Positions 3,975 to 58,555 of a stretch of DNA of 64,000 nucleotides are shown one piece after another. The position numbers were made by a program, and so were the translations under genes. Position 1 is the first letter of the stretch. Every line of letters begins with the position of its first letter. The stretch is from Candidatus Uhrbacteria bacterium (GTDB lineage: Bacteria; Patescibacteriota; Patescibacteriia; JACRJV01): the NCBI GenBank assembly GCA_016215325.1, contig JACRJV010000027.1, positions 16,090 through 80,089 on the forward strand, written 5' to 3'. Under the pieces are notes generated by a model, which was not told where the DNA came from, did no database searches, and saw nothing but the letters and a program-made list of their open reading frames with translations.

Positions 3975-5364
3975 TCCCGCAATCTTTAAGGCATACGACA
4001 TCCGTGGGGTTGTCCCAAGCCAACTCAATGAAGAGATTGCCTATGCCATTGGTCGAGCTTTTGTCGTGTGGCTTGCGGGGCAGAGGGATCCGGCACCAAC
4101 GATTGTTGTTGCTCGTGATGGGCGGATTTCCGGACCATCATTATTCGAGGCGGTCAAACAAGGGCTCGCTGATCAAGGCGCATCCGTCATCGATGTGGGG
4201 GTTCTGGCATCAGAGCAGTTTTATTTCGCATGCGCCTATGTTGGTGCGCCAGGAGTGACGGTGACCGCCAGTCACAACCCCAAAGAGTATAATGGGATGA
4301 AGTTTGTAAAAAAAATTCCGTTCTTCTTGAGTGGGGACCAGGGCATTCAGGAATTACGAACATTGGTGGAGCAGAGCCAATGGCCGGAGGTGAGTAAGAA
4401 AGGCACCGTGCGCACAGAAGACATCCGGTCGCTGTATGTCGAAAAATTGTTTTCGATAATTCCGACCTCCGACCTCCGACCTCCGACTTCTCGGCCCCAA
4501 CCTCCGACAGTAGTGATCGATACTGCCAACGGCGTCGCAGGCCCGATTATCACCGATATTGCATCAGCGCTGCCCGTTACCGTCCGACATTTGTTTGCGG
4601 ATGTTGATGGCGCGTTCCCCAATCACCCTGCCGATCCGTTGCGTCCCGAGAATCGGATAGCGGCACAACAAGCGATCCACAACCACAAGGCACAGGCCGG
4701 ATTTTTGTTTGATGGCGACGGCGATCGATGTTTTGTGCTCGACGAAAACGGCGAGCTCGTCCCCAATGAATTTTTGGGAACTCTTTTTGCCCAGGATCTC
4801 CTGTCAGCGCATCCGGGAGCAACATTTATCTACGATGTGCGCAGCTCTTGGGCATTCCCGCGCGTTGTCGAAGCGGCCGGTGGGAAGCCGTTCATGAACC
4901 GCGTTGGGCACGCGTATATCAAACCCCGAATGATGGAGGAAGGTGCGGTCTATGGCATGGAAGTTTCAGGACACCATTACTTTAAAGATTTTTTCTGGTG
5001 TGATTCAGGGGTATTGCCCATGCTCTATACCCTCAAAATAATGAGTAAGACTGGTAAGTCTTTGTCGGAACTGGTAGCCCCCTTGCGTCAGCAATATCAT
5101 TTGAGCGGAGAGTTGAATTATGCTGTCCATGATGCGCCGGGGATCTTAAAGCGGCTCAAAGAGAAATTGGCGGATGCGCCAAAGAAATACGAACTCGATG
5201 GCGTTTCGTTTGAATACCCCGATTGGCATTGTAATGTGCGCAGTTCCAATACCGAACCCTTGTTGCGGTTGAATTTGGAATCCATGGTGAGTAAAGAGCA
5301 TATGGAGGAGAGAAAGAAGGAGATGGAATCAATTATCCTAGAACCTATTACCTCGTCATTATGA
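3964..5364 (+). CDS. Phosphoglucomutase/phosphomannomutase (alpha-D-phosphohexomutase)
   Basis: Active-site motif TASHNPKEYNG and Mg-binding motif FDGDGDR. Confidence 0.9.
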   Translation: MSIDPAIFKAYDIRGVVPSQLNEEIAYAIGRAFVVWLAGQRDPAPTIVVARDGRISGPSLFEAVKQGLADQGASVIDVGVLASEQFYFACAYVGAPGVTVTASHNPKEYNGMKFVKKIPFFLSGDQGIQELRTLVEQSQWPEVSKKGTVRTEDIRSLYVEKLFSIIPTSDLRPPTSRPQPPTVVIDTANGVAGPIITDIASALPVTVRHLFADVDGAFPNHPADPLRPENRIAAQQAIHNHKAQAGFLFDGDGDRCFVLDENGELVPNEFLGTLFAQDLLSAHPGATFIYDVRSSWAFPRVVEAAGGKPFMNRVGHAYIKPRMMEEGAVYGMEVSGHHYFKDFFWCDSGVLPMLYTLKIMSKTGKSLSELVAPLRQQYHLSGELNYAVHDAPGILKRLKEKLADAPKKYELDGVSFEYPDWHCNVRSSNTEPLLRLNLESMVSKEHMEERKKEMESIILEPITSSL

Positions 5365-6164
5365 TCGGCGTATTCGATTCTGGCATCGGCGGCCTCACCG
5401 TCGTCAAAGAAATCACCAAGCAGCTGCCGGGCATGCCAGTCTTATATTTGGGCGATACGGCCCGTACGCCCTATGGCAACAAGAGCCCCGAGACAATTGG
5501 GCAGTATGCACTCCAAGATGCAAGGTTTCTGATCGATCACGGCGCTACCGTGATCGTCGTTGCCTGTAATTCAGCCTCGTCGGTGGCTTCCAAAATTCTA
5601 AATTCTGAATTCGACAATCCAGTGTTTGAGGTGATCACGCCCGCCGCGCGACGTGCCGCAACGCTCACAAAGAAAAAACGTGTTGGAGTGATCGGCACAC
5701 GTGCAACGATTGGTAGTCGTGCCTACGAACAAGCAATACATGCGGTTGACGATCGTGTCAGTGTCATGGGTCAGGCGTGCCCACTGTTTGTCCCACTTAT
5801 TGAAGAAGGTTGGGCCAAGAAAGGGGAGACCACCCGGATTGTAAAATTGAGTCTTCAAGGCCTTAAAACCAAAAACATCGACACCCTGATTTTAGGCTGC
5901 ACGCATTACCCGATTATTCGCGACCTCATCCATGCCAAAATCGGAAAGCGGGTAACATTGGTAGACCCGGCTGAAGAGGTGGTGAAAGATCTGCGACAGT
6001 ATCTTGATGCACATCAGGCAGTGGCACAGTCATTGCGTTCCGCTGCAGACCATCGGTTTATGGTCACCGACGTCACGGAACATTTCCAATCTATTGCCCA
6101 GAGTTGGCTTAAGCGGAGTGTTCGGTTGGAGAAAGTGACATTCGGCGAAGGCCCAGGGGTATGA
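5361..6164 (+). CDS. murI: Glutamate racemase
   Basis: N-terminal GVFDSGIGGLTV, VVACNSAS and LGCTHYP motifs; 4-nt overlap with upstream and downstream genes. Confidence 0.9.
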   Translation: MIGVFDSGIGGLTVVKEITKQLPGMPVLYLGDTARTPYGNKSPETIGQYALQDARFLIDHGATVIVVACNSASSVASKILNSEFDNPVFEVITPAARRAATLTKKKRVGVIGTRATIGSRAYEQAIHAVDDRVSVMGQACPLFVPLIEEGWAKKGETTRIVKLSLQGLKTKNIDTLILGCTHYPIIRDLIHAKIGKRVTLVDPAEEVVKDLRQYLDAHQAVAQSLRSAADHRFMVTDVTEHFQSIAQSWLKRSVRLEKVTFGEGPGV

Positions 6165-12141: not shown

Positions 12142-13128
12142 TTATTTCAGCAGCCCAATCTTTTCTCGCGCCTGCTCCATGGTTTTGGTCGCTACTGATC
12201 GTGCGCGATGGGCGCCGTCCTCCAAGATTTTTTTGAGCGTTTGGGGCGTTCCCATGAGTTTTTGGTATTCATTCTGCAAGGGGGCGAGGGACTCAATAAC
12301 CGTTTCGGCCAACTCTTTTTTGAATGCCGCATACCCTTTGCCTGCAAAGTGTTTCTCGAGCTGGGGGATGCTCTTGCTCGAGAGAACGCTCATGATGGTC
12401 AGCAGGTTTGTGAGCGCGGGCTTGTCCTTTCCGCTGATGACCTCGGTACCGGAATCCGTAACGGCCTTGGCAATTTTTTTCTTTATGGTTTCGGCATCAT
12501 CGGTGAGTGCAATATAGTTGTTCGGGGAGCTCGCGGACTTACTCATTTTTTTATTTGGATTATCCAAGCCCATAATCCGAGCGCCTTCTTTTTGGAGTCG
12601 GACCTCGGGAATCCGGAATGTTTCTCCGAAACGATGGTTAAAACGCTTGGCGAGTTCACGCGTGAGCTCGACGTGCTGTTGTTGGTCTTCCCCCACCGGA
12701 ACAATGTGGGGCTGGTACAACAGGATGTCCGCAGCCATCAGTACGGGATAGTCAAAGAGGCCAACCGTCACTGACCCCTGACCCTTGACTCCTGATGTCT
12801 TATCTTTGAACTGGGTCATCCGTTCCAACTCACCCATGGTGGCAATCGTATTGAGGATCCATCCCAATTCAGCATGTTCTTTGACATGCGACTGTACAAA
12901 TAATGTTGACTTCTGGGGGTCCAATCCCGCGGCAAGATACATCGCTGCTAAACTCAACGTATTCTGCCGGAGTTGCTCCGGCTCTTGCGGGACAGTGATC
13001 GCGTGCAGGTCAACGATACAATAATACGCATGGCCTTCGTTCTGGAGAGCAATGAATTGTTTAAGTGCGCCCAGATAATTGCCGAGGTGTAACACTCCAG
13101 AAGGTTGGATGCCAGAGAGGATGGTCAT
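12142..13128 (-). CDS. trpS: Tryptophanyl-tRNA synthetase
   Basis: HIGH-type motif HLGNYLG and KMSKS motif; 328 aa. Confidence 0.92.
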   Translation of the reverse strand: MTILSGIQPSGVLHLGNYLGALKQFIALQNEGHAYYCIVDLHAITVPQEPEQLRQNTLSLAAMYLAAGLDPQKSTLFVQSHVKEHAELGWILNTIATMGELERMTQFKDKTSGVKGQGSVTVGLFDYPVLMAADILLYQPHIVPVGEDQQQHVELTRELAKRFNHRFGETFRIPEVRLQKEGARIMGLDNPNKKMSKSASSPNNYIALTDDAETIKKKIAKAVTDSGTEVISGKDKPALTNLLTIMSVLSSKSIPQLEKHFAGKGYAAFKKELAETVIESLAPLQNEYQKLMGTPQTLKKILEDGAHRARSVATKTMEQAREKIGLLK

Positions 13129-13173: not shown

Positions 13174-13328
13174 TTCGCACAATCCATAGTGAATGACAAG
13201 GGTTTACGGGAGCTCTTGCCCAGCGGGCACTGATATGGTAGTCTAGAGGCATACTATTGGCGTTTATCCGCGTGTTGATCCCTGCCTACCGGCAGGCCAG
13301 GCGCGTTTTTCTGCTTCTACAAAAAAAT

Positions 13329-17305: not shown

Positions 17306-20300
17306 ATGTCCCAAGAGAGCCAAAAGTACAATCATGGAGAAATAGAGGAAAAGTGGCAGAAGCAATGGGTCGATCAGGGCATCTATCAACAGTACGATCG
17401 ACCGGAAAAGTTTTACGCGTTGGACATGTTCCCATACCCGTCCGGGGCGGGACTGCATGTCGGCCACCCCAAAGGCTATATTGCGACAGACGTGTTTACG
17501 CGCATGAAGATGCTCCAGGGCAAGAGCGTGTTGCACCCCATGGGGTGGGATGCTTTTGGATTGCCGGCCGAAAATTACGCGATTAAAAATAAGGTGCACC
17601 CCGCCAAGGCCGTTGCGGAGAACATCGTCGTGTTTAAACAGCAGCTCCAAAAAATCGGTTTTACGTATGATTGGGATCGCGAAGTGAATACCACTGATCC
17701 CGCGTATTATCGTTGGACGCAATGGATTTTTCTTAAGCTGTTTGAACACGGGCTTGCGTACGAAGCCGACGAACCCATCAACTGGTGCCCGTCGTGCAAG
17801 ACCGGGCTTGCCAATGAGGACCTGGAAGACGGCAAATGCGAACGGTGCAGCAGTGTCGTTGAGCAGAAGAAAATGCGGCAATGGAAATTGCGCATGACGG
17901 CGTATGCGGATCGGTTGCTCGAAGACTTAGACAAGACCAAGCTCCAGTGGGAAGAATCGATTAGAATCCAGCAACGCAATTGGATTGGCAGGAGTGAAGG
18001 GGCTATTGTAAAATTTTCAATTTCTCCGCCCAAGGCGGATCCGCCTCTGGCGGACAATTTCCAATTTCCAATTGACGTCTTCACCACCCGCATTGATACG
18101 ATTTTTTCTGGCACCTTTTTAGTGTTGGCTCCGGAGCATGAGTTCGTGGACGCAGTAAAGGAGCATATTCAGAATTGGAATGAAGTGGAAACATATCGTC
18201 AAACACTCCAAACCGTTTCTTTGATTGACCGCACTTCTGCAGGGCGAGAAATCACTGGTATTGAACTCAAAGGCATCACCGCGATCAATCCCGCGACCAA
18301 AGAATCGATGCCAGTCTGGATTGCCGATTTTGTATTGGCGCAATACGGTACGGGAGCTGTCTTTGCCGATGCGCACGATACTCGAGATTTTGCAATGGCA
18401 AAAAAATATCGTATTCCACTCAAGGTTTCTATCCAACCAGAGGATCCTGCATTGCTTGAGCAAGTGAAGGCCCTTGCTGTGTGTTATCCCGGCGAAGGAA
18501 AATTATTTAACTCCCAGCAGTTTGATGGAATGACTTCTGCTCAAGCGCGTCCAAAGATCGTTGAGTGGTTGTCGCAACAAGGGAGCGCGAAACCCACCGT
18601 CAACTACAAAATGCGCGACTGGGTGTTTAGCCGTCAACGGTATTGGGGCGAGCCGATCCCGCTCATTCATTGCGAACAATGCAAGAAGAAAAAATATCAA
18701 TATGTGTTTATCCATGGATTCACTGGGAGCTCTCAGGGTGTGTTTTTCCCGTGGCTTGCGCAAGAACTAAAACGTCAAGGACACACAGTGTTCTGCCCCG
18801 ATCTCCCCAACACCGAACATCCCAACATTCAAGAGCAAGTGGAATATATTTTGGACAATACCGCAATCAACGAAGACACGATCCTCGTCGGCCACAGTCT
18901 TGGGGGGGTTGTCATGATGAAATTATTAGAGCAGATCTCGGGCAGTGTCCGGCGCGCGGTATTTGTCGATCCGGTGGTATCCAAGACATTTAATGACCAT
19001 GCTCGGCCAGACGTGGAAAAGAGTAATGATTGGAAATTTGATTATGCAAAAATAAAATCAAACATTCGAGAAGTTGTTGTGTTGGCAGACGCTCGGCATC
19101 CTATTATTCGCGTCGAGGATATTGAGAAATTGCGAACAGTCTTGAATGCAAACCAGACGATCACCGTGCATCCGGAAGCAGACCATTTTACCGCCTCTCA
19201 AGAACCGGAAATTTTGCGGGCGATTGACAGCATCGGCACCATTGCGTTGTCGGAAGACGAGTTGCCGCTGAAATTGCCTGAGGTCGAGAAGTATGAACCC
19301 ACCGGCACGGGCGAATCACCGCTAGCGGGTATCCCTGAATGGGTGAATACAACGTGCCCGCAGTGCGGTGGGGCAGCCCGGCGCGAGACCAATACGATGC
19401 CGCAATGGGCAGGATCCAGTTGGTACTACCTCCGGTATATTGATCCGCGTAATGGTGCCGCACTGGTTGATTTGAACAAAGAAAAAGAATGGATGCCCGT
19501 CGATCTCTATGTCGGTGGCGCAGAGCATGCCACGCGACATTTGCTGTATGCGCGGTTTTGGCATAAGTTCTTGTATGATATTGGCTCGGTATCGACTATC
19601 GAACCCTTCAAGCGATTGATCAATGTCGGCCTTATCCTTGCCGAGGATGGCCGTAAGATGAGCAAGCGGTGGAGCAACGTCATTAATCCGGACGATATTA
19701 TCGAACACTACGGCGCAGACAGCTTGCGCTTGTACGAAATGTTCATGGGGCCGTTTACGCAAAGTATCGCGTGGAGCACCGATGGCGTTAAAGGTGTGCG
19801 GCGATTTTTGGATCGTGTCTGGAATTTGAAAGAGCGAACTCTGAACCCTAAACTCTCTACCCTGAACCCTAATATCGATCGCCTCCTCCACCAAACCATT
19901 AAAAAAGTCACGGACGACATCGAGGGTTTTAGATTTAATACCGCCGTATCTCAAATGATGATTTTAGTCAACGCAATGGAAAAAGCCGATTCTCTGCCCC
20001 TATCTCAATTCTCTATCTTGCTATTGTTGCTCAGCCCGTTCGCTCCGCACATGGCCGAAGAGTTGTGGCACCAGCTGGGAAACTCGGAATCGATTTTCGA
20101 AGCGCAGTGGCCACAGTACGATCCATCGCTTGCCAAAGAAAGCGAAGTGGAATTTGTGGTGCAGGTCAATGGCAAGGTGCGCGATCGGTTCGCGATTCCC
20201 GTGGGACTGCCAGAAGTCCAAGTCATTGCGCAATCGTTAGAACGCGATGCGGTCAGGGGGTGGCTGGAAGGCAAGCAAATCCGCAAGAAAATTTTTGTGC

Positions 20301-20332
20301 AGGATACGTTATTGAATATCGTCGTCTCATAA
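17306..20332 (+). CDS. leuS: Leucyl-tRNA synthetase carrying an inserted alpha/beta-hydrolase domain
   Basis: HIGH motif (HVGHPKGY), KMSKR motif, CP1 editing domain; 1008 aa, about 190 aa longer than typical LeuS. Confidence 0.92.
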   Translation: MSQESQKYNHGEIEEKWQKQWVDQGIYQQYDRPEKFYALDMFPYPSGAGLHVGHPKGYIATDVFTRMKMLQGKSVLHPMGWDAFGLPAENYAIKNKVHPAKAVAENIVVFKQQLQKIGFTYDWDREVNTTDPAYYRWTQWIFLKLFEHGLAYEADEPINWCPSCKTGLANEDLEDGKCERCSSVVEQKKMRQWKLRMTAYADRLLEDLDKTKLQWEESIRIQQRNWIGRSEGAIVKFSISPPKADPPLADNFQFPIDVFTTRIDTIFSGTFLVLAPEHEFVDAVKEHIQNWNEVETYRQTLQTVSLIDRTSAGREITGIELKGITAINPATKESMPVWIADFVLAQYGTGAVFADAHDTRDFAMAKKYRIPLKVSIQPEDPALLEQVKALAVCYPGEGKLFNSQQFDGMTSAQARPKIVEWLSQQGSAKPTVNYKMRDWVFSRQRYWGEPIPLIHCEQCKKKKYQYVFIHGFTGSSQGVFFPWLAQELKRQGHTVFCPDLPNTEHPNIQEQVEYILDNTAINEDTILVGHSLGGVVMMKLLEQISGSVRRAVFVDPVVSKTFNDHARPDVEKSNDWKFDYAKIKSNIREVVVLADARHPIIRVEDIEKLRTVLNANQTITVHPEADHFTASQEPEILRAIDSIGTIALSEDELPLKLPEVEKYEPTGTGESPLAGIPEWVNTTCPQCGGAARRETNTMPQWAGSSWYYLRYIDPRNGAALVDLNKEKEWMPVDLYVGGAEHATRHLLYARFWHKFLYDIGSVSTIEPFKRLINVGLILAEDGRKMSKRWSNVINPDDIIEHYGADSLRLYEMFMGPFTQSIAWSTDGVKGVRRFLDRVWNLKERTLNPKLSTLNPNIDRLLHQTIKKVTDDIEGFRFNTAVSQMMILVNAMEKADSLPLSQFSILLLLLSPFAPHMAEELWHQLGNSESIFEAQWPQYDPSLAKESEVEFVVQVNGKVRDRFAIPVGLPEVQVIAQSLERDAVRGWLEGKQIRKKIFVQDTLLNIVVS
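18683..19258 (+). other. In-frame inserted RBBP9/YdeN-like serine hydrolase domain within LeuS, between the CEQC and CPQC halves of the zinc knuckle
   Basis: YVFIHGF...FPWL...VGHSLGG...ADHF pattern of PF06821-like alpha/beta hydrolases; lower GC than the flanking leuS sequence. Confidence 0.7.
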
Positions 20333-20370: not shown

Positions 20371-20402
20371 AAAACACCGCTATCATCAGCGGTGTTTTTT
20401 GG
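20371..20402 (+). terminator. Rho-independent terminator after leuS
   Basis: AAAAACACCGCTATCATCAGCGGTGTTTTTT hairpin plus T-tract. Confidence 0.8.
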
Positions 20403-20499
20403 TATTAATTGAGGATTTGACGGAAACGGTGCGGGCCAGTAGGATCCCCGATAGTAGCTTCATACAAGAAGGAACCACGACATGGGAGGAGGTGACCTC

Positions 20500-20718
20500 A
20501 TGAAATTCCTTCTCACGGCCGTGTTATTCGGTGCCCTGTGTGCCGCGCTTTTTGCGCTGGGCACATGGCTGGCGTTTTGCGACCGGCTGGGCCGACTGGG
20601 GGCGTGGGTCCGCGACTTCCCCCTCAATGTCTTCCTGGCATTGGCGTGGATCGCGGTCCTGCCGGTGCGAGCGTTGCGCTATGTGATGGCGCTGGCTCGT
20701 GACGGGATTGAGTGGTAA
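20500..20718 (+). CDS. Small two-helix membrane protein, first gene of GC-rich segment A
   Basis: RBS GGAGGAGGTGA 6 nt upstream of the ATG; two hydrophobic helices; GC about 62%. Confidence 0.45.
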   Translation: MKFLLTAVLFGALCAALFALGTWLAFCDRLGRLGAWVRDFPLNVFLALAWIAVLPVRALRYVMALARDGIEW

Positions 20719-21012
20719 CTTCAACTTGCACGCAGAGTGGCTCCACTGGCCCTCACGAGGGATGCGCGCATCGACGATAAGGATGAGGAGGAACGGATGA
20801 AAAGACCGCAAACGGAACGCCGTGTCCGCAGCGATGGACGCGACGTGATCATATGTGTGGATTCGGACCCGCGGCGGCGGGGCCGAATGGGCGCGATCCT
20901 GGAGAAGGATTCGCGAAGCTCCGATCACCGCGAGGTGATCGGGATCCAATCGCTGGAGCCGGGGTTGCTGGAGAGCGAGCGGCTTCGGGCGCTGATCTTC
21001 AACATCATTTTC

Positions 21013-21051
21013 GCGGCCGGCACAGGGGTTCCCTCCCTCTGTTCCGGCCGC
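21013..21051. repeat. 39-nt palindromic repeat GCGGCCGGCACAGGGGTTCCCTCCCTCTGTTCCGGCCGC, copy 1
   Basis: Exact copy at about 22284-22322; stem of about 12 bp, then a T-rich tail. Confidence 0.7.
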
Positions 21052-21088
21052 TGCTTATTTTTGGGGATTAATGAGGACCGAATCGTTC

Positions 21089-21190
21089 GAGTCATCCTGA
21101 GCCCAAGCCAAGGATCTTACCGTTGAGGATTCCCCGCCTCGGGCGGGATCCCGCTGCGGCGGGACTTCGGCTCATGGCCTCAGAATGACG
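21089..21190 (+). other. Structured element of about 100 nt: long inverted repeat GTCATCCTGAG...CTCAGAATGAC enclosing two tandem GC hairpins
   Basis: Inner hairpins CCCGCC-TCG-GGCGGG and CCCGC-TGCG-GCGGG; followed by a T-run; no match to known RNA families. Confidence 0.35.
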
Positions 21191-21317
21191 ACTTTTTCAC
21201 AGCAAACGCGTACGTCCGGCGCAATAGCGTGTCGGCAGTTTTTTGTTTGTTTGACAAGGGGGGGGTGCAGTTTGCTAGCATAGGGCGACCATCAACATCG
21301 TGGAGAGGAGGACTACT

Positions 21318-21701
21318 TTGAAAATTGCGTGCGTGGGCTTCAAGGCCGAATTCGTCGTGCGCTTGCGCGACCATGGACTCAACGAGGAATTCCAGGATCC
21401 AGGGATCGTCTACGATTATGTCGACGATTCGACCACCGCGGCGCATCGAGGGACGCTGGAAGGGGCCGACCTGGTGCTTGCCACGTCCGGCAGCGCCATC
21501 AGTTTGATTGCCGATGCCAAACGGCATCGTGTGGCTGATCGCCTGGTGGTGATTACCAAGGACACCGCTGATCCCAATGCGCAGTTCGTGGTAGAGACTA
21601 CGGGCGGAACGACCTTTGTCTGGACGGACAAGGTCACCCACCCGCGCGATCTGGCCAAGCATGCGCGGATCCATCTGGAGAAGATTCGCCGCAACGGCTG
21701 A
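21318..21701 (+). CDS. Hypothetical protein in GC-rich segment A
   Basis: Strong RBS GGAGAGGAGGA 5 nt before a TTG start (alternative GTG at 21300); GC about 60%. Confidence 0.5.
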   Translation: MKIACVGFKAEFVVRLRDHGLNEEFQDPGIVYDYVDDSTTAAHRGTLEGADLVLATSGSAISLIADAKRHRVADRLVVITKDTADPNAQFVVETTGGTTFVWTDKVTHPRDLAKHARIHLEKIRRNG

Positions 21702-21797
21702 CAACCATCACCAGCGCGCAGAGGCTTTGCGTTCCGTCAGACGATGGGGCGGATGCTTCGCGAGGGATGCGTGCTTCTACCGAAATAGGAGGCAATC

Positions 21798-22265
21798 ATG
21801 CCGAGACCCCCTAAGGGTTGTAAGCAGGACCACTCGAGCGGCTGGTGGCTGCTCAACTTTGACAGCGATCCCGTCTTCCGGGGTCGCATTGACACGTTCG
21901 GCCACCTGGCGATGGGTGGCATGGACTACAACCGCAAGGATTCCGCTGACGTGGCGTTGGCGATCGCTGATGGTCGCCTCAAGAGCGCAACGCTCTGCTT
22001 CATTCCGGTGGAGCTTGGCGAAGCGGACTTGGGGCGCCTGCTGGCCGAGGCCAAGGTGCAGGGCTCCGCCAACCGCTGCGTGATCACCTACTTCGCGGCG
22101 GACCGCGACAAGGAGCACGCCGAATTCTGGGCCGGCAAGTTCGGTTCCGTCGCGCTTCACAAGAACATGGAGTCGACCGAGCCCAGCGCTGAAGCCTTCT
22201 TCAAGGCCGCCAGCAAGCAGCGCGAGAAGGCTGCCCTCCAGGGCGGCATGGGCTGCACGATCTGA
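21798..22265 (+). CDS. Hypothetical protein in GC-rich segment A
   Basis: RBS AGGAGG 6 nt before the ATG; 155 aa. Confidence 0.55.
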   Translation: MPRPPKGCKQDHSSGWWLLNFDSDPVFRGRIDTFGHLAMGGMDYNRKDSADVALAIADGRLKSATLCFIPVELGEADLGRLLAEAKVQGSANRCVITYFAADRDKEHAEFWAGKFGSVALHKNMESTEPSAEAFFKAASKQREKAALQGGMGCTI

Positions 22266-22283
22266 TTCCTCGGTTCACATTCA

Positions 22284-22322
22284 GCGGCCGGCACAGGGGT
22301 TCCCTCCCTCTGTTCCGGCCGC
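22284..22322. repeat. 39-nt palindromic repeat, copy 2, immediately after the stop of 21798..22265
   Basis: Identical to 21013-21051. Confidence 0.7.
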
Positions 22323-22354
22323 ATCTCTTTTATTGCGAGATAGATCGAGATAAC

Positions 22355-22440
22355 GATACGAAGATATGAAGAATTTTCGATCGCAAATTTCCAATAAATT
22401 TTTTTGCCCCTTCGTATCCTCATCTCTTTATATCTCATTT
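22355..22440. mobile_element. AT-rich MITE-like palindromic element with GATACGAAG / CTTCGTATC terminal inverted repeats, sitting in the GC-rich segment
   Basis: Related copies upstream of tmk (about 54391-54473) and upstream of glyA (about 172-215); sharp GC drop relative to its flanks. Confidence 0.45.
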
Positions 22441-22444
22441 CGGA

Positions 22445-22473
22445 TTGACACCCTCCTTGGCCTGCGATAGCAT
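22445..22473 (+). promoter_or_regulatory. Putative promoter: TTGACA, 17-nt spacer, TAGCAT
   Basis: Hexamers read from the sequence upstream of the 22567 ORF. Confidence 0.35.
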
Positions 22474-22566
22474 GGGGCCACGTTTCACATTCACAGAATT
22501 CCGGCGGGAGGGCGCTGGGATTCTCAAAACATCGGCCCGTTGTCCATCGGACCGAAAGGAGGCCAC

Positions 22567-22989
22567 TTGGCCGCTCGACGAGTACTCGCGGTCGGGAGCG
22601 AAGCGCTCCTCGACTGGTGCCGGCAACACGTCGGCAAAATCGTAGTAGAGCCGGGGCTCTACAGCGTGTTGGAGCCCGAGACTGTTCTTCGGAAGGGGTT
22701 GCTGGCAGGACTCGTCCTCGGATTCGTCGAGGCCGCACTCGAAGGCGCCGAGGACTTGCTTTCGGCCGCACGTCGGACTGGTTGCCACAAGGTTCTGATC
22801 TTCGTCCACAGCGGGAGCCAAGGTCAGCACGACGCAGAGCAGCTAGCAGGCCTGGCGGGCAGCGTCCACATCGACCTGGGGGCAGACCCCGACCATGCGG
22901 TCGAAGAGATCAACGAGCATCTCCAACGGCTCGTTCACCCGGAACCGGTCAGACGTGTCCCGGCGTCCGAGCGTCAGGGGGTGAATTGA
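22567..22989 (+). CDS. Hypothetical protein (GC-rich)
   Basis: RBS AAGGAGG 5 nt upstream of a TTG start; the listed ORF start at 22540 places the RBS inside the ORF, so the downstream start is preferred. Confidence 0.4.
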   Translation: MAARRVLAVGSEALLDWCRQHVGKIVVEPGLYSVLEPETVLRKGLLAGLVLGFVEAALEGAEDLLSAARRTGCHKVLIFVHSGSQGQHDAEQLAGLAGSVHIDLGADPDHAVEEINEHLQRLVHPEPVRRVPASERQGVN

Positions 22990-23152
22990 CCTTGCGGTCC
23001 GCGTAAGAGCCCTCCCTCTTGCCCGGACCGCGTTTCTTTTATAGGGCAGACGAGCAGATAAGCCTGCCTGCCGGTAGGCAGGGAGGTAAAGAGACAAAGA
23101 TATACGGGCGGATAATTGGATAAAGTATTGCGGTATGGTAGGGTGATGGTGT

Positions 23153-24256
23153 ATGGATTGGGATCAATTTGTTCAACGGCATGCCGGCGATGGAGGGCTG
23201 TTGCAGTCCAGTAGCTGGGCCAAGTTTCAGCGTGGGCTGGGAAGAACGGTAGATGCTATTGTCATTCCCGCGAAGGCGGGAATCCAGAAAATAAAAACTG
23301 ATCGTGGATCCCTGCCTATCGGGCGGGCAGGCCCGATCTCGGTCGGGGATGACACCGCAATGGTTGCGTTAATCATTGAACATAGATTCCCGTTTGGTCA
23401 GTCGTATGTGTATTCGCCGAGGGGGCCGGTCACAAAATTTCCAATTTCCCTGCCTTGCTGGCAGGCAGGCAATTTCCAATTTTCAATGAACGGTATTGTT
23501 AGTGAAATCCGCAAGAAATTCCCAAAGGCAATTTATTGGAGAGTAGAGCCACCATACGAAAATTTTCAATTTCCCTGCCTTGCCGGCAGGCAGGCAATTT
23601 CCAATTTCCAATTAAGGAGTGCTCCGCACAATGTGCAGCCAGCGACGACGCTCATTATCGATCTTTCAACATCCGAAGAAGAACTCTTGGCGCAGATGAA
23701 ACAGAAGACGCGATACAACATTAAGATTTCACAACGACATGGGGTGCGAGTTTCAGTAAACAGTGAACAAGAAACAGTAAACAACTTTCTGGATTTGTTG
23801 GAAGAAACGGCCAAACGCGATGGGTTCCGTGTTCATCCGCGGGGGTATTATCAGAAATTTCTCACCCTCACCCCAACCCTCTCCCAGGGGGAGAGGGGGT
23901 TGAGCATCGAACTCTTCGGCGCTTTCCACGGCGATCAGCTCCTCGCCGGTGCCATTGTCGCGTTCTACGGCAAGTGGGCGTATTACTTGCACGGAGCTTC
24001 GTCATCCGGGCGTCGCGACTTGATGGCTCCGTATTTCTTGCATTGGGAAATTATGCGGGAAGCCAAACGGCGTGGGTGCACGAAGTATGATTTTTGGGGG
24101 GCAGGGGATGAATGGCCGGGCGTTTCCAAATTTAAAACCGGCTTTGCGCCGGCAACTGCGTTGACTCACTATCCTGGAACGTTTGATATTGTCCTTGACC
24201 GGAAAAAATATTTCGTGTATCGTGCGTTTCAAACGATTCGACGCCTCGGGTCGTAG
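23153..24256 (+). CDS. FemAB-family peptidoglycan peptide-bridge aminoacyltransferase carrying three in-frame repeat-element insertions
   Basis: C-terminal YYLHGASSSGRRDLMAPYFLHWEIMREAKRRGCTKYDFWGAG...FKTGFAP is typical FemX/FemAB; the N-terminal half is interrupted by palindromic elements. Confidence 0.7.
   Translation: MDWDQFVQRHAGDGGLLQSSSWAKFQRGLGRTVDAIVIPAKAGIQKIKTDRGSLPIGRAGPISVGDDTAMVALIIEHRFPFGQSYVYSPRGPVTKFPISLPCWQAGNFQFSMNGIVSEIRKKFPKAIYWRVEPPYENFQFPCLAGRQAISNFQLRSAPHNVQPATTLIIDLSTSEEELLAQMKQKTRYNIKISQRHGVRVSVNSEQETVNNFLDLLEETAKRDGFRVHPRGYYQKFLTLTPTLSQGERGLSIELFGAFHGDQLLAGAIVAFYGKWAYYLHGASSSGRRDLMAPYFLHWEIMREAKRRGCTKYDFWGAGDEWPGVSKFKTGFAPATALTHYPGTFDIVLDRKKYFVYRAFQTIRRLGS
23262..23340 (+). 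repeat. Palindromic insertion (ATTCCCGCGAAGGCGGGAAT hairpin plus a CCCTGCC...GGCAGG variant) inside the FemAB-like CDS
   Basis: Perfect 8-bp stem; in-frame; encodes IPAKAGIQ... Confidence 0.5.
23434..23488 (+). repeat. Repeat element AAATTTCCAATTTCC-CTGCCTTGCTGGCAGGCAGG-CAATTTCCAATT inserted in-frame in the FemAB-like gene
   Basis: Near-identical copy at about 23549-23613; the CCTGCC-N8-GGCAGG palindrome also occurs at about 13281, 23063 and 36187. Confidence 0.65.
23549..23613 (+). repeat. Second copy of the TTCCAATTTCC-CTGCCTTGCCGGCAGGCAGG-CAATTTCCAATTTCC element in the FemAB-like gene
   Basis: As above. Confidence 0.65.
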
Positions 24257-25701: not shown

Positions 25702-26025
25702 TCAGTTTTGGGGTTGCTCAATCTTTGGTTCTGCCGTCTCCTTTTCTTTTGCCGCTTCTTTGCGCTTAAGGGTCCGGGCTGCTTGTTTGGCGCGCTTGCC
25801 TTTGCGTGTGCTAGCCACTTCGGCTTTCTGGGTCATGCGTTTTTGATATTTATCAACGCGTCGGGCGGTGTCGAGGATGCGTTGCGTACCCGTGTAATAC
25901 GGGTGGCATTTGGCGCAGACTTCGATGTGGATTTCGGGGATGGTGGAACCAACCTCCAGACGATTACCGCAGGAGCAGACGATCACGGCGTTGGTATGAT
26001 ACTTTGGGTGGACGTCGGATTTCAT
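25702..26025 (-). CDS. rpmE: 50S ribosomal protein L31
   Basis: MKSDVHPKYH...CSCGN...CAKCHPYYTG; the listed ORF runs upstream across noncoding sequence, the true start is at 26025. Confidence 0.9.
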   Translation of the reverse strand: MKSDVHPKYHTNAVIVCSCGNRLEVGSTIPEIHIEVCAKCHPYYTGTQRILDTARRVDKYQKRMTQKAEVASTRKGKRAKQAARTLKRKEAAKEKETAEPKIEQPQN

Positions 26026-26274
26026 AAATACATAACGCGAATACCGTTCAGCCGCAACGGCTAGTCGGGCATGCGAATACCGCGAATAATTTTTGTAGAA
26101 ATAGTATACCATCATGAGTCGTGCTTGACAAGGGAGGGGAATGGCCGGTAGGGTTGGGGGAGAATCATGTTTAGAGCGAGTCCATCGCCGCCCCACACGG
26201 GTGGCGATTGTTTTTTCCGGTGGCTCAACAGCGACCGGAGATCGGATCACCCGCACAGGGTGAGAGGAGCGGTC

Positions 26275-26700
26275 ATGCACGATCGGCAGATACTGCACGC
26301 AACGGTGCAGGGTCTCCTGCGCCAGGCCACGGAGATCAAGGGTCTGGACGTCAACTCCTGGCTCAGGGAGGAGGATGGGAGAGAGGCTGTCGTCGACCTC
26401 CTGACCACGACCCTGGGCAGGGTCTACAACAGCGCGCACGCGGTCAAGTTGACCAAGGCTTTCGCGGCCCTTCGTGCGTGCCAGAAGGACGACGGCCGGG
26501 GCACGATGTTCCTGCGCGCCTCCCTCCGTGGCCACCCCGAGATTGACTCCGAGCTCAAGAGGCTCGAGGCGATCCTGGCTGCCAGCGTCATGGAAGCGCC
26601 GCAGCCGCTCGCCAAGGCCTGCCCGGCCGGGATCCGGCATATCGCCGGCGAGTGCGACCAGGAATGCGATCGCATCGCCGGGATGTTCGCCCAGCGCTGA
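26275..26700 (+). CDS. Hypothetical protein in GC-rich segment B
   Basis: RBS GAGAGGAG before the ATG; GC about 65%. Confidence 0.5.
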   Translation: MHDRQILHATVQGLLRQATEIKGLDVNSWLREEDGREAVVDLLTTTLGRVYNSAHAVKLTKAFAALRACQKDDGRGTMFLRASLRGHPEIDSELKRLEAILAASVMEAPQPLAKACPAGIRHIAGECDQECDRIAGMFAQR

Positions 26701-26951
26701 TCTGGACGAGCTCAACTCACACGGGCAGACGGTCGCGCCTCATCGCGCTGCCGTCTGCCCGAGGGCCCTTACACTCCTCGATTGTTTGTTTGACAGATAA
26801 TCTGCGTTCCGCTAGGATAGAATCAATATGCATCGATCCCAACTCACCAGCCGTGTCGTCGTGGTCCGCCCCTTGAGGAAGCGGTGATCTTGGCATAGAA
26901 AAGAGTAGAGCCAAACGCCGCCTCCAAACGGGCGGTCTTTTTTATAGAAAA

Positions 26952-27062
26952 TGGTTGACGGAAGATGGAAATTGGTAATAGAAAATAGAAACTGGAAACT
27001 GGAATGATCTTCGAATTTCTGGTTTCCAACATCCATTACTATTTTCTGTCTTCCATCAACCA
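26952..27062. repeat. Imperfect palindrome of about 110 nt, GGAAATTGGTAATAGAAAATAGAAACTGGAAAC...
   Basis: Clearly related to the palindromic spacer at about 53628-53750 (GGAGATTGGTAATAGAGAGTAGAAAATAGAGGTTGGAAAC). Confidence 0.6.
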
Positions 27063-27235
27063 GTTTCCAATGCTAAGCGTTCTCTTGGGCATGCCGGAGA
27101 AATTTCGTCTCGAATATCGAGTATCGAATATCTTTTCTCTCGTGTGCCGAGGATGACGATTCAACTGGAGGAGAACCGATAGTATCGGTTCAAATCGTCG
27201 TTACTCTAGGATTGACAACAAGGAGGCCACCAACC

Positions 27236-27592
27236 ATGGTGAGCTGCGGATACCAAGATCGCGAGCAGGAGGCGTGCTACCCCGAATATGTTGCCCCGGA
27301 CACCAAGCACAAGCCGGGGTCCAAGCCCATCGGCTACCAGGACGTCCGCGTTCACGCCGGTCGCAGCCACGGCCGACACCGCATGAAGCGCATGCGCGTG
27401 TTCGCCTGTGAACACTGCGGGCACCAGGATGGACACCGCACGCTGCGGACCCACAACTGCCCGGTGCTGACCGGTACCTTGCGCATGCATACGCCGATGC
27501 TCCTCAGCCGGGACACCTGGGGCTGCGCAAACTGCTCCGCCACCGGCGAGGACGACTCACTGGATGGCCGGCACTGCTCGGCCACGTCCTAG
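27236..27592 (+). CDS. Cys/His-rich hypothetical protein (putative zinc-binding)
   Basis: RBS AAGGAGG; CEHCGH...HNCP...WGCANCS. Confidence 0.5.
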   Translation: MVSCGYQDREQEACYPEYVAPDTKHKPGSKPIGYQDVRVHAGRSHGRHRMKRMRVFACEHCGHQDGHRTLRTHNCPVLTGTLRMHTPMLLSRDTWGCANCSATGEDDSLDGRHCSATS

Positions 27593-27609: not shown

Positions 27610-27677
27610 GCCCCCGTAGATCACGGTAGATCGTCCGCTCAACACGCGGGAGGTAGGGTTCAATTCCCCCGGGGGCT
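27610..27677 (+). pseudogene. tRNA-like element 1 (atypical; possibly a degenerate tRNA)
   Basis: Perfect 7-bp acceptor stem (GCCCCCG/CGGGGGC), D-arm GATC-ACGGTA-GATC, T-loop GGTTCAATTCC; but a weak T-stem and an anticodon loop TCAACAC with no U33. Confidence 0.3.
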
Positions 27678-27684
27678 CCGAATC

Positions 27685-27753
27685 CGCTCGCGTAGCTCAA
27701 CGTAGAGCGGCCCGACAACATCGGGCAGACGCGGTTCGAGTCCGCACGCGGGC
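27685..27753 (+). pseudogene. tRNA-like element 2 (atypical; possibly a degenerate tRNA)
   Basis: Acceptor GCTCGCG/CGCGGGC, D-arm TAGCTCAACGTAGAGC, anticodon stem GCCCG/CGGGC, T-arm CGCGGTTCGAGTCCGCA; anticodon loop ACAACAT is non-canonical. Confidence 0.3.
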
Positions 27754-27945
27754 ATCACCTCCACTCCCCGCATTCTGCGGGGCAAACCGGCTGGGGAGAG
27801 TGTCGTTCGCCTCATCGCGAACAACTCTCCCTGGCCGCCCTCCCTCAAAAACAAATCACTCTATAAAAGATAAAAATAAATTATTTTTGTGCACCCTCTT
27901 GACAGTGCAATTGAATTCCCATAAACTCGTCTGTTATACTAGGTC

Positions 27946-29545: not shown

Positions 29546-29807
29546 TTCGGGAAGGAACGGAGGGCGGCTGCGCAATCCATGGTAGTTCGCGCAAACAACG
29601 GATCGCGCAGATCAGGGGGGCGCGATAGACTGCCCGCCGGAGGGCATGGGCGCGCTTCTAGGACAACGGCGATCTTGATTTAACCCCGCTTTCGAGACCT
29701 CAACGGCCCGCCCTCATCGGCGCGCCTGCGAGGTCTCTCTTCATTTCTGCAGAGTTCCCTCTCCCTGTGGGAGAGGGTCAGGGTGAGGGGATTAAGAAAA
29801 ATTCCGG

Positions 29808-30349: not shown

Positions 30350-30420
30350 TCGGGCTGCCGGGAATTGAACCCGGTCTACATGCACCCCATGCATGCGTAC
30401 TACCGGTATACTACAGCCCG
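30350..30420 (-). tRNA. tRNA-Pro (anticodon GGG)
   Basis: Cloverleaf on the minus strand: acceptor CGGGCTG/CAGCCCG, anticodon arm CATGC-ATGGGGT-GCATG, T-arm CCGGGTTCAATTCCCGG. Confidence 0.85.
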
Positions 30421-32739: not shown

Positions 32740-32847
32740 AAGCAAGATTAATTTTCAATTATCAATTTGCAATTTTCAGTGAATTTTCAATTGATCATTG
32801 AATATTGATTGAAAATTAGAAATTGGAAATTGAAAATTTTTTTGTTT
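32740..32847. repeat. AT-rich spacer element (AATTTTCAATTATCAATTT...TTGAAAATTAGAAATTGGAAATTGAAAAT) upstream of fusA
   Basis: An about 40-nt near-identical stretch also occurs at about 56022; the family is shared with the 36421, 40972, 56017 and 57223 spacers. Confidence 0.6.
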
Positions 32848-36186: not shown

Positions 36187-36207
36187 CCCTGCCTACCGGC
36201 AGGCAGG
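36187..36207. repeat. Copy of the CCCTGCCTACCGGCAGGCAGG palindrome between xseA and xseB
   Basis: Same palindrome as at about 13281 and 23063, and inside the FemAB-like gene. Confidence 0.6.
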
Positions 36208-36228: not shown

Positions 36229-36420
36229 ATGAAAACATTTCAACAACAATTCGAAGAGCTCGAGAACATTGTCCGCACGTTTGAATCCGGCGATGTCGAT
36301 CTTGATGTGGGGCTCAAGGAATTTGAGAAAGGGATGAAACTCGCTGGCGAGCTTAAAAAGAAACTTGACGGGGCAGAAGTGAAGTTGGAGACGCTCAAGA
36401 AAGAATACATCAAATCGTAA
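36229..36420 (+). CDS. xseB: Exodeoxyribonuclease VII small subunit
   Basis: MKTFQQQFEELENIVRTFESGDVDLD...; immediately downstream of xseA. Confidence 0.85.
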   Translation: MKTFQQQFEELENIVRTFESGDVDLDVGLKEFEKGMKLAGELKKKLDGAEVKLETLKKEYIKS

Positions 36421-36518
36421 TTTCCAATTTCCAATGAATTTTCATTGTCATTATTCTTAAATTGAATCATTGTAAATTCAATGAAAATTGTTACTTGAAA
36501 ATTGAAAATTATATCGGT
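36421..36518. repeat. AT-rich spacer element (TTTCCAATTTCCAATGAATTTTCATTG...AATTCAATGAAAATTG...TTGAAAATTGAAAAT) upstream of dnaE
   Basis: Contains the 16-nt palindrome CAATGAATTTTCATTG; shares ATTCAATGAAAATT with the 56017 spacer. Confidence 0.6.
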
Positions 36519-56016: not shown

Positions 56017-56122
56017 AACAGTAAATTTTCAATTATCAATTTTTAATTTTCAATGAATGATTCAATTTAGAATTTTTCAACATTGAAAATTCAATGAAAA
56101 TTTTAAATTGGGAATTGGAAAT
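56017..56122. repeat. AT-rich spacer element (AAATTTTCAATTATCAATTTTTAATTTTCAATGAATG...TTGAAAATTCAATGAAAATT...GGAATTGGAAATT)
   Basis: About 40 nt nearly identical to the fusA upstream spacer; shares a motif with the dnaE spacer. Confidence 0.6.
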
Positions 56123-56557
56123 TTATACCGTGGTTCCCGTCGACCCATATCCACCACGGTCAGCGGCATCGATCTCTTCTTCGGAAAACTCCGCTTTGTC
56201 GATGCGGACAAACACTGCCTGGCCCAGGCGTTCACCTTTTTCAATGGTAACGGGATGGTCGGTAAAGTTATAGAATTGCAAAAGGATTTCGTCGTTTGGC
56301 CCGCAGTAATCTTGGTCGACCACCCCAATGCCTTGCGGGATGGACAAGCCCTTGCGTTTGGGAGTGGACGAGCGGGGGACCACCACGAGCATGTACTTCT
56401 CGGGAGTCTCGACAATAATATTGGTGGGGATCCGTTCTATTGCTTTTGGCGCAACGGTGGTATCAATGCGACTGTACAGATCAAACGCCACCGAACCCGG
56501 GGTGTGGTAGGCCGGCAAGGGCAGGGTGGGGTCGATGCGGTGGATGCGCACCATCAT
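56123..56557 (-). CDS. dut: dUTP diphosphatase
   Basis: dUTPase motifs PRSS and GxIDxDY (GVVDQDYCG); 144 aa. Confidence 0.9.
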   Translation of the reverse strand: MMVRIHRIDPTLPLPAYHTPGSVAFDLYSRIDTTVAPKAIERIPTNIIVETPEKYMLVVVPRSSTPKRKGLSIPQGIGVVDQDYCGPNDEILLQFYNFTDHPVTIEKGERLGQAVFVRIDKAEFSEEEIDAADRGGYGSTGTTV

Positions 56558-56631: not shown

Positions 56632-57222
56632 CTAAGACTGGAAGTCTTCCGGCAGAAACTTCGTTGAGGTTTGTCCGGTTTGCTGTTTAAACCGTCCTTT
56701 TTGTTGATATGAAAACTCCACCGGAGAGCTTAACTCTTCGAAGGTGAAACTGCAAATGCGCATCCCGGGGTAGAGCGCCACGGGGATCCGGCCTTGGTTG
56801 CCGAGCTCGAGCATGGGGTTGCCGTCCCAGCCGGGGTCAAAGCGCGCTGCTGTTGAATGGACGATAATGCCGACTCGGGCAAGACTTGACCGCCCTTCCA
56901 GCCGGCCGATCAAATCATTGGAAAGCGTGAGTCGTTCGCGGGTGGCGGCGATAATGAGTTCCCCAGGGTGGATAATAAAACGTTCCCCATCCGGGATCTC
57001 CACGAGTCTCGTGACCGTATCAATCACGAGCTCCTGGAGGGGATCGATGATCGGGAGCTTGTTATAGTCAAATACGCGGAATGTATTGCCTAAGTGGAAG
57101 TCGACAGAGCACGGCCGTAAAATCGAGGACGTAAGGTCCGGGGAAGGTTCCATCTGGATTCGTCCAGCAGCAAACGCGCGGCGGATGTCACGGTCGGACA
57201 AAATCACAATGAAAATTTTCAA
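56632..57222 (-). CDS. dcd: dCTP deaminase
   Basis: ILSDRDIRR N-terminus, FDPGWDGNP motif; TTG start at 57222 or GTG at about 57207. Confidence 0.85.
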   Translation of the reverse strand: MKIFIVILSDRDIRRAFAAGRIQMEPSPDLTSSILRPCSVDFHLGNTFRVFDYNKLPIIDPLQELVIDTVTRLVEIPDGERFIIHPGELIIAATRERLTLSNDLIGRLEGRSSLARVGIIVHSTAARFDPGWDGNPMLELGNQGRIPVALYPGMRICSFTFEELSSPVEFSYQQKGRFKQQTGQTSTKFLPEDFQS

Positions 57223-57280
57223 TACCCAATTCCAATTCCCAATACACGTCGACTATTCATTGGAAATTAGGAATTGGGAA
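57223..57280. repeat. AT-rich spacer element (CCCAATTCCAATTCCCAAT...CATTGGAAATTAGGAATTGGGAATTAGAAATT)
   Basis: Member of the GGAATTGG/GGAAATT family. Confidence 0.55.
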
Positions 57281-58479: not shown

Positions 58480-58485
58480 ACGTTC

Positions 58486-58514: not shown

Positions 58515-58555
58515 ATCGTGATTGTGCTTCTTGTTCACTGTTTCTTGTTTACTGA

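Follow-up and report, generated by a model that had tools for sequence, protein, structure and literature searches.

Repeat DNA of several families within the loops of an intact femAB gene from the Candidate Phyla Radiation

The window analysed here is a stretch of 64,000 nucleotides (nt) of contig JACRJV010000027.1 from Candidatus Uhrbacteria, a bacterium of the Candidate Phyla Radiation (CPR) (assembly GCA_016215325.1, positions 16,090 to 80,089, forward strand). It contains a gene for a predicted aminoacyl-tRNA-dependent peptidoglycan bridge transferase of the FemAB/FemX family (femAB, 23153 to 24256, plus strand), which was assigned by Pfam, AlphaFold2 (AF2) and Foldseek. This gene is intact and carries five blocks of repeat DNA from at least four repeat families. 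The region has one long open reading frame (ORF), which is open over 367 amino acids and contains every repeat block in frame. An initial annotation of this DNA had described three palindromic insertions that keep the reading frame. All three exist and are read through, with coordinates corrected to 23260 to 23352, 23434 to 23490 and 23559 to 23615; the description was incomplete, and two further blocks had been overlooked.

The femAB gene and its repeat blocks

Site 1 (23260 to 23352, plus strand) is a palindromic composite about 91 nt in length and is translated as 'VIPAKAGIQKIKTDRGSLPIGRAGPISVGD'. It has outward-facing TGTC/GACA tags, and its ends, GTCATTCCC...GGGGATGAC, are inverted and pair with each other. 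The block comprises a hairpin that resembles the Neisseria Transformation Sequence (NTS) at 23260 to 23287, with ATTCCCGCGAAGGCGGGAAT at 23264 to 23283 (8-bp stem), a CCTGCC-type hairpin (CCTGCCTATCGGGCGGGCAGG, 23311 to 23331) and an overlapping hairpin (ATCGGGC..GCCCGAT, 23318 to 23337). Folded as RNA (95 nt), site 1 forms a single long hairpin of -43.9 kcal/mol (z = -3.2), and none of 200 shuffled sequences folded as well.

Site 2 (23434 to 23490, plus strand) is an AATTTYC heptamer array that is split by a 21-nt hairpin (CCTGCCTTGCTGGCAGGCAGG, 23449 to 23469) and translated as 'KFPISLPCWQAGNFQFS'. Site 3 (23559 to 23615, plus strand) is a second copy of this composite, with the hairpin CCTGCCTTGCCGGCAGGCAGG at 23574 to 23594 and the translation 'NFQFPCLAGRQAISNFQL'. 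The two copies are 93% identical over 57 nt. The hairpin at their centre is CCTGCCTTGC(T/C)GGCAGGCAGG, and its flanks are direct AATTTYC heptamer repeats, not inverted ones. The same DNA is read in two frames at the two sites, as 'SLPCWQAG' and as 'PCLAGRQA'. Removal of the 21-nt hairpin in silico brought back an unbroken four-unit AATTTYC array at sites 2 and 3, closely resembling the (AATTTCC)4 array found at site 2 of one orthologue (L001, also given as P0014).

The two overlooked blocks lie farther downstream. Site 4 (23860 to 23908, plus strand) is a hairpin of the form CTCACCC...CCCTCTCCC-AGG-GGGAGAGGG..GTTGAG, with the hairpin sequence CCCTCTCCCAGGGGGAGAGGG, and is translated in frame as 'LTLTPTLSQGERGLS'. 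Site 5 (23754 to 23784, plus strand) is a degenerate CAGTRAA heptamer array, detected by Tandem Repeats Finder with period 7 and 4.3 copies; it encodes 'SVNSEQETVNN' and is a native loop of the protein, not an insertion. The peptide stretches encoded by the femAB blocks include 'KFPISLPCWQAGNFQF' as well as that of site 3. No stop codon interrupts the cores of the heptamer-hairpin composites in any of the six frames, and sites 1 and 4 are open in four of six.

Several lines of evidence identify the host gene. The PF02388 profile of Pfam matched its product with 131.7 bits (cut-off 24; E = 4.2e-38), and an identical protein is deposited as FemA/FemB family from a Candidatus Uhrbacteria metagenome-assembled genome (MAG). 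Searching the Protein Data Bank (PDB) with a 24-sequence profile revealed the FemX chains 6snr (1e-44) and 1ne9 (5e-31). The AF2 model generated from 108 sequences reached a pLDDT of 89.8 and a pTM of 0.89, and a Foldseek search of the PDB with this model returned the FemX structures 6snr, 1xe4 and 1ne9 (E of about 1e-20; target TM 0.75). Model and search together revealed the fold of FemX with its two GNAT domains. In the 108-sequence alignment the protein keeps 18 of 18 invariant columns as well as the near-invariant ones. F327 and K328 are invariant across the 108 sequences; in Weissella FemX their counterparts lie in the VFKHVF stretch ('vFKhvF' in 1ne9), which holds the catalytic Lys305. 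Judged from its sequence, the enzyme is predicted to carry out aminoacyl-tRNA-dependent transfer to a peptidoglycan precursor. The gene order is kept in orthologous contigs, in which leuS precedes femAB and prfA and rpmE follow on the opposite strand. An Rfam scan of the window revealed no RNA family overlapping femAB; its sole match in the window was a tRNA.

The initial annotation had proposed a comparison with FemX structures to see whether the insertions map to loops, and for blocks 1 to 4 they do. These blocks (residues 40 to 66, 98 to 105, 139 to 143 and 242 to 248) have an occupancy of 0 to 30% among 107 homologues. They are the sole segments of low pLDDT in the FemX-like model, and each lies between secondary-structure elements. 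Averaged over 10-residue blocks, the pLDDT is 53 and 47 for residues 41 to 60, 80 and 69 for residues 91 to 110, 58 for residues 141 to 150 and 71 for residues 241 to 250. Site 2, for example, lies with lowered pLDDT between the strand at residues 84 to 88 and the helix at residues 102 to 122. Block 5 is an ordinary loop and is confidently modelled. In the profile alignment, site 4 falls where FemX of S. aureus (6snr) has an extra segment of about 66 residues, the coiled-coil arm of staphylococcal Fem proteins, and this position is naturally permissive for insertion.

These data bear on the possibility, also raised in the initial annotation, that femAB is a decaying pseudogene that stays open by chance while repeats pile up under relaxed selection. 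The density of repeats in the gene is unusual: the window has 50 perfect hairpins with stems of 7 bp or more (0.8 per kb), compared with about 24 in shuffled sequences, and five of them lie within the 1.1 kb of femAB. However, the ORF is full length without frameshift or stop, all invariant and near-invariant residues including the FK motif are retained, the AF2 model has high confidence except within the blocks, and the synteny with leuS, prfA and rpmE is kept. Moreover, orthologues have repeats at the same loops, and blocks of the same kinds occur in essential genes, namely those for leucyl-tRNA synthetase (LeuRS), tryptophanyl/tyrosyl-tRNA synthetase (Trp/TyrRS), the GlmM-like mutase and MurI in the window and those for TsaD, LigA and LepA elsewhere. 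We therefore consider a pseudogene very improbable.

Related repeats in orthologues, in the window and in other genomes

The gene was compared with six syntenic orthologues in a codon-threaded alignment. The comparison with relatives, also suggested in the initial annotation, revealed that the CCTGCC hairpin is absent from all six. Most of them carry tandem heptamers with a unit of their own at sites 2 and 3. L001 has (AATTTCC)4 at site 2 and in addition (CTTACAA)4, L006 has (ACGAATG)n and (CTTACAG)4 at sites 2/3, and L002 and L007 have units of the AGAATTY type at these sites. L005 has TTTAGGG/TATAGGG units, and its site-2 repeat is nearer to 8 nt (TCTTCGTA); L004 has a weak repeat only at site 3, with none evident at site 2. 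The arrays (CTTACAA)4 and (CTTACAG)4 occupy one site, site 3, and each unit shows the identical one-base difference between them. This change of one base in each unit indicates turnover of the array by concerted evolution. At about the position of site 5, coordinate arithmetic and the alignment placed (GATCAGG)4 in L004 and (CCAATTA)4 in L006.

The repeats are elements at the level of DNA and not peptides under conservation. At site 1, the arms in P0003 are homologous as DNA (GTCATTCC-stem-GGAATCCAGA.AAATAAA ... GGATGAC), with another stem and in a shifted frame. As stem and frame differ, so do the peptides, although the DNA element is of the same kind. P0009 has, at the corresponding position, the left arm of block 4. 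In L005, which carries the P0003 gene, site 3 has TTTAGGG/TATAGGG heptamers and site 4 has the reverse complement of these, CCCTAAA/CCCTATA; TTTAGGG is the telomere repeat unit of plants.

Both kinds of repeat are dispersed in the window. The pattern CCTGCC-N(4-9)-GGCAGG has six distinct sites (13281, 23063, 23311, 23449, 23574 and 36188), compared with 0.03 in shuffled sequences. The initial annotation had placed recurrences of the palindrome at 13281, 23063 and about 36187 with a fixed spacer of 8 nt. The sites were right, the last being 36188, whereas the spacer varies from 4 to 9 nt. Outside femAB, one copy is found at the 5' edge of an ORF for a DksA/TraR-type zinc-finger protein (13281 to 13301, plus strand), a 20-nt copy lies in opposite orientation in the intergenic region 70 nt before the femAB start codon (23063 to 23082, plus strand), and another 20-nt copy is intergenic, 22 nt upstream of xseB (36188 to 36207, plus strand). 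The hairpin is 21 nt long at sites 2 and 3 and in the site-1 variant, and 20 nt long in two of the three copies outside femAB. Since 21 nt correspond to seven codons and to three heptamers, the length of the copies within the gene is consistent with a frame filter. An intergenic relative of the hairpin family of site 4 lies at 29757 to 29795 on the minus strand (related copy at 29757 to 29777).

Dimers of AATTTYC (AATTTYCAATTTYC, with at most one mismatch) have 18 matches in the window, compared with 0.23 expected. Tandem repeats of period 7 number 15, compared with 0.15 expected (about 100-fold), and periods 6, 8 and 9 are essentially not represented. Heptamer arrays lie inside the genes for the GlmM-like mutase, MurI, Trp/TyrRS, LeuRS and FemAB. 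They are in frame in the GlmM-like mutase (4458-4508), in MurI (5591-5613), in Trp/TyrRS (12769-12791) and in LeuRS (19837-19867), in the last case at the position of an (AATTTCC)4 array of L001. A (TCCGACC)n array that encodes 'IPTSDLRPPTSRPQPPT' was observed between PGM domains I and II. At 18010 to 18073 (plus strand), LeuRS has a further AATTTYC array; two TCCGCC..GGCGGA hairpins are nested in it, and the block is translated in frame as 'KFSISPPKADPPLADNFQFPI', with an RNA fold of -20.5 kcal/mol (z = -3.6).

Between genes, perfect (CAGTGAA)4 arrays are present at 58485-58514, and inverted pairs of heptamer arrays at 32750-32838, 36419-36510, 56024-56123, 57220-57290, 58485-58555 and 26966-27075. 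Such pairs, e.g., (AATTTTC)n ... (GAAAATT)n, form long AT-rich hairpins, and a T-run comes after the pair at 32750-32838. The pairs may be terminators, or heptamer-built units that resemble MITEs (miniature transposable elements with inverted repeats).

When genomes, one for each species, were scanned with the pattern AATTTCCAATTTCC-N(0-30)-AATTTCCAATT, (AATTTCC)n was found at no fewer than 119 loci, 68 of those listed being labelled CPR and belonging to many classes. Among the matches listed, 87 of 122 arrays lie in long ORFs, mostly in sense orientation. Two of the listed arrays (L109 and L100) hold nested hairpins. L109, from Candidatus Roizmanbacteria (locus of 37% GC), contains the composite of site 3 with 54 of 55 nt identical, in frame within an NAD(P)H-hydrate dehydratase gene and read in a third frame ('FPALPAGRQ'). 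In L100, a TCCGCC..GGCGGA hairpin lies in an AATTTCC array within a gene that resembles family 2 glycosyltransferases by sequence, which mirrors the arrangement at 18010 to 18073 in LeuRS.

The 21-nt hairpin was found in a metagenome scan on at least 120 contigs, mostly of 34 to 48% GC, with at least 128 copies. Among the matches listed, 70 of 128 copies lie in long ORFs, in both orientations and in three phases. The host genes near the 120 loci are housekeeping genes, e.g., those for LepA, a Mur ligase, TsaD, LigA and PheS. Direct repeats of at least 7 nt extend across the hairpin in 32 of 121 copies, compared with 5.7% in permuted controls, and in half of these flanks the period is 7, with a variety of unit sequences. 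Some other copies are central in NTS-like arms or longer palindromes. The variety of these contexts indicates that the hairpin acts as a module. In the metagenome contigs L132 and L166, the CCTGCC hairpin stands where an NTS-like element would have its loop (tgtcattccagc-hairpin-ttgtctggaatc), and in L197 and L224 it stands at the centre of 'gattgccac...ctcgcaatgac' palindromes; hairpin families thus nest in one another. L210 has the 21-nt hairpin twice (42-62 and 1995-2015), inverted and 1.9 kb apart, with about 40 nt of flank shared. One of these copies is in frame at the N terminus of an ORF that by appearance resembles a large serine recombinase, and the pair could delimit an invertible segment.

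The dehydratase of Roizmanbacteria provided an empty and a filled site. In most aligned homologues the loop after GPGMVRGK holds a differing heptamer-derived peptide, and in two of them the loop is absent. P0136 has the empty site (...ATTACGAATTAAGAATTAAGAATTTTT) and P0131 the filled one (...ATTACGAATTAAG(CCTGCCTGCCGGCAAGGCAGG)AATTAAGAATTTTT, in short ATTAAG(CCTGCCTGCCGGCAAGGCAGG)AATTAAG, with the insert in parentheses). The pair reveals a clean insertion of 21 nt without target duplication, in an orientation opposite to that of the copies in the window. Neither the hairpin nor the AATTTCC array sequences were found in the open-access literature, and no paper tying heptanucleotide repeats to Patescibacteria was found there.

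Further observations concern neighbouring genes. The LeuRS gene (17306-20332, plus strand; 1008 amino acids) contains a complete alpha/beta-hydrolase domain (Abhydrolase_1, Ser_hydrolase) inserted at residues 467 to 628. This insert is present in L002, L003 and L004 and absent from L001 and L007 (about 815 amino acids). The full-length orthologues of L001 and L007 are of a divergent LeuRS type with a shorter loop, and no clean empty site was found in them. Between leuS and femAB, 2.7 kb (20400-23150) with a GC content of 0.56 to 0.58 contain overlapping ORFs on both strands and no Pfam match, and the orthologous contigs have several small hypothetical genes at this place. ARAGORN predicted two adjacent tRNA-Val(AAC) genes (27610-27679 and 27686-27754) for which the Rfam tRNA model was silent at its gathering score; they may be degenerate or tRNA-like. 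The tRNA-Pro gene at 30350-30420 was the only one found by both ARAGORN and Rfam. An ORF on the minus strand (25702-26715) is open over 337 amino acids, of which the ribosomal protein L31 domain covers residues 231 to 293 only; its true start probably lies far downstream, leaving a long leader.

Probable tolerance, possible functions and proposed spread of the repeat DNA

We conclude that femAB is very probably a working gene whose dispensable loops hold tolerated repeat DNA, selfish or neutral, in the manner of Rickettsia palindromic elements (RPEs). The initial annotation had proposed a MITE-like family that is tolerated in surface loops. Tolerance and dispersal are supported by the position of the blocks in loops, the dispersed families, the hairpin-free orthologues and the reading of one DNA in several frames; the classic MITE does not apply to sites 2 and 3, where the direct-repeat flanks and the absence of a target duplication rule it out.

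The following course of events would account for these data. Heptamer microsatellite arrays would occupy fixed loop positions in the femAB family and turn over fast, most likely by replication slippage, so that syntenic orthologues come to have, at corresponding loops, heptamer repeats that differ in unit sequence and are in part degenerate. Small GC-rich hairpin modules would insert as discrete units without target duplication, with a preference for heptamer arrays. These modules would comprise a repetitive extragenic palindrome (REP) with a CGTC tag (dRS3/NTS type), the untagged 21-nt hairpin CCTGCCT-N5-GGCAGGCAGG, TCCGCC hairpins and CCCTCTCCC. Selection would then act as a filter through which only in-frame insertions in surface loops survive, and the outcome would be extra peptide loops that are probably neutral, as with RPEs. 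The hairpins may spread by transposition or nuclease action on hairpins of single-stranded DNA, similar to IS200/IS605-RAYT or Ssn, or by copying driven by the homology of the arrays.

The blocks could instead be functional, either as adaptive loops that bind tRNA, lipid II or a partner, or as regulatory elements that act through mRNA structure, pausing or phase variation in steps of 7 nt. Heptamers are indeed retained at equivalent loops in syntenic orthologues, AATTTCC arrays are biased to the sense strand, and site 4 coincides with the long extra segment of S. aureus FemX (6snr). In addition, 7 is not divisible by 3, so that a change in unit number switches the frame, as in contingency loci. 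However, the peptide is not conserved: one and the same DNA occurs in three reading frames and in either orientation. The loops are absent from most homologues and wholly deleted in some, the hosts are unrelated housekeeping genes, and the arrays are short (two to four units) and imperfect, and hence poor substrates for slippage. A function of the blocks is thus unlikely.

An artefact of assembly or binning, i.e., chimeric joins induced by repeats in a MAG, was also considered. The sequence does come from a MAG, and the exact protein was found on one contig only. Yet the repeats (21 to 91 nt) are below read length, the frame and the flanking conserved residues run exactly across each block, and numerous independent assemblies show these architectures; P0121, for example, is present on 10 contigs from several samples. 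We regard an artefact as hardly credible.

Several points weigh against tolerated repeat DNA as the full explanation. We only infer the activity of the repeat-decorated enzyme. The nearest FemAB orthologue found by BLASTP has about 56% identity and is too distant for a dating of the insertions. Among the AATTTCC matches listed, a crude ORF test gave about 68 arrays in sense and 19 in antisense orientation only; this bias hints at some selection, which a purely neutral model does not predict. The composite shared by two CPR lineages could, instead of having been transferred, have been assembled convergently from two modules that are very common. Finally, 30 ORFs of the window that were scanned contain no transposase, RAYT/IS200 or GIY-YIG according to Pfam, and no mobiliser is enriched near the 120 hairpin loci, whose 1,508 ORFs yielded housekeeping families only when clustered by all-against-all blastp. 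The only trace of a mobiliser among the window ORFs is a sub-threshold match to an IS1595 zinc ribbon in the ORF at 27212-27589.

Phages were examined as a possible vector. The hairpin pattern occurs in 41 IMG/VR contigs, but nearly all of these have 61 to 70% GC, and many of the matches are recurrent coding matches with identical flanks. Such high-GC contigs are unrelated to the low-GC element of the CPR and are uninformative about a phage vector.

The orientation of the hairpins is coupled to G-poor flanks, which suggests strand-specific insertion. A more far-reaching proposal is that CPR bacteria share a modular system that is still active. The 21-nt hairpin and related GC-rich hairpins would move between genomes and insert strand-specifically into heptamer arrays without target duplication, driven by a nuclease or transposase specific for single strands, and the arrays, located in dispensable loops of housekeeping proteins, would offer safe sites of insertion and a lineage-wide supply of rapid loop variation. 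We put this forward tentatively and consider it doubtful.

Comparison with known repeat systems

Hairpin 1 belongs, by its sequence, to an already described class, the CGTC-type REPs (dRS3/NTS). Its region at 23260-23287 (TGTCATTCCCGCGAAGGCGGGAATCCAG) agrees with the 28-nt NTS consensus CGTCATTCCCGCGMAVGCGGGAATCYRG at 27 of 28 positions and also matches the degenerate pattern of Ssn-related motifs (SRM; consensus and pattern from PMC11893778). ATTCCCGCGAAGGCGGGAAT at 23264-23283 has the dRS3 core ATTCCC-N8-GGGAAT. The format of CGTC-1 REPs, which has been equated with dRS3 and RPE-6 (PMC3733652), is found in hairpin 1 as a TGTC variant of the tag, an 8-bp stem starting with AT, a 4-nt loop and a CCA tail. 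CGTC-type REPs are known within genes, where intragenic copies have been documented (PMC3733652), and often form inverted dimers. The 64-kb window has one match only to this class (0 to 1 in shuffled sequences) and thus no expansion, and no Ssn-type GIY-YIG (cd10448) was found among 30 of its ORFs scanned with Pfam. Neither PMC3733652 nor PMC11893778 mentions CPR hosts for CGTC-type REPs or NTS, and the word 'Patescibacteria' does not occur in the latter.

As a whole, the femAB blocks appear to work like Rickettsia palindromic elements (Ogata et al. 2000, as discussed in PMC3733652 and PMC10969869). In both cases short palindromic repeat DNA is in frame in many unrelated, often essential genes, has few stop codons and lacks an associated transposase. 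RPEs are thought to occupy surface loops and to add peptide without killing the protein, and the position of blocks 1 to 4 in the FemAB fold agrees with this. However, RPE-1 measures 100 to 150 bp and is confined to Rickettsia, whereas the units found here measure 20 to 57 nt and have a CPR host. Furthermore, femAB combines several unrelated families in one gene, and two of its blocks are hairpins nested in heptamer microsatellites. The likeness is one of format, with hairpin 1 sharing the format of CGTC-1 (= RPE-6, PMC3733652). Because the architecture differs and the likeness rests on format rather than on sequence membership, we do not class the blocks as RPEs.

The other blocks were compared with mobile elements. 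As regards the terminal inverted repeats of MITEs, the ends of site 1 are inverted and the flanks of sites 2 and 3 are direct. Unlike MITEs, the hairpins leave no target-site duplication, as the empty and filled pair reveals and as excision in the window, which restores the array exactly, confirms. With REP-associated tyrosine transposase (RAYT) systems and IS200/IS605 elements, the hairpins share the insertion of small hairpin units without target-site duplication. In contrast to REP/RAYT, GTAG is absent beside the CCTGCC hairpins, and the search for RAYT or TnpA genes in their vicinity revealed none. The CCTGCC hairpin has neither a GTAG nor a CGTC tag.

Heptamer tandem repeats also have precedents. 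Those of cyanobacteria are known as STRR. An excess of heptanucleotide simple sequence repeats (SSRs) in bacteria, mainly intergenic, has been attributed to polymerase slippage, with TAACTGA repeats in Beggiatoaceae and GGGAATC in Xanthomonas as examples (Mrazek 2007, as cited in PMC4679880 and PMC4692102). The window shares with such genomes a strong excess that is specific for period 7, many unit sequences and inverted pairs of intergenic arrays. It differs in that many arrays lie inside housekeeping genes at conserved loop positions, that the unit AATTTCC is common to many CPR classes and that the arrays host nested hairpins.

These findings extend the concept of selfish DNA that resides within genes, for which Rickettsia is the best-known example, to the CPR, where it is widespread in essential genes (FemAB, LeuRS, TsaD, LigA, LepA and Nnr). 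The blocks inflate and distort CPR proteins with peptides such as VIPAKAGIQ, PALPAGRQ, NFQFPIS and LTLTPTLSQGERG. Alignment, domain calling and phylogeny may be misled by them, and masking would be helpful. The clean 21-nt pair, the preference for arrays, the persisting arrays and the shared 55-nt composite offer a testable handle on hairpin movement and on the 7-nt excess of bacteria. Compared with the systems above, it is the combination that is new: a CPR host, several families in one gene, a hairpin nested in coding heptamer arrays, lineage-specific arrays that persist, and a composite that occurs across distant CPR lineages.

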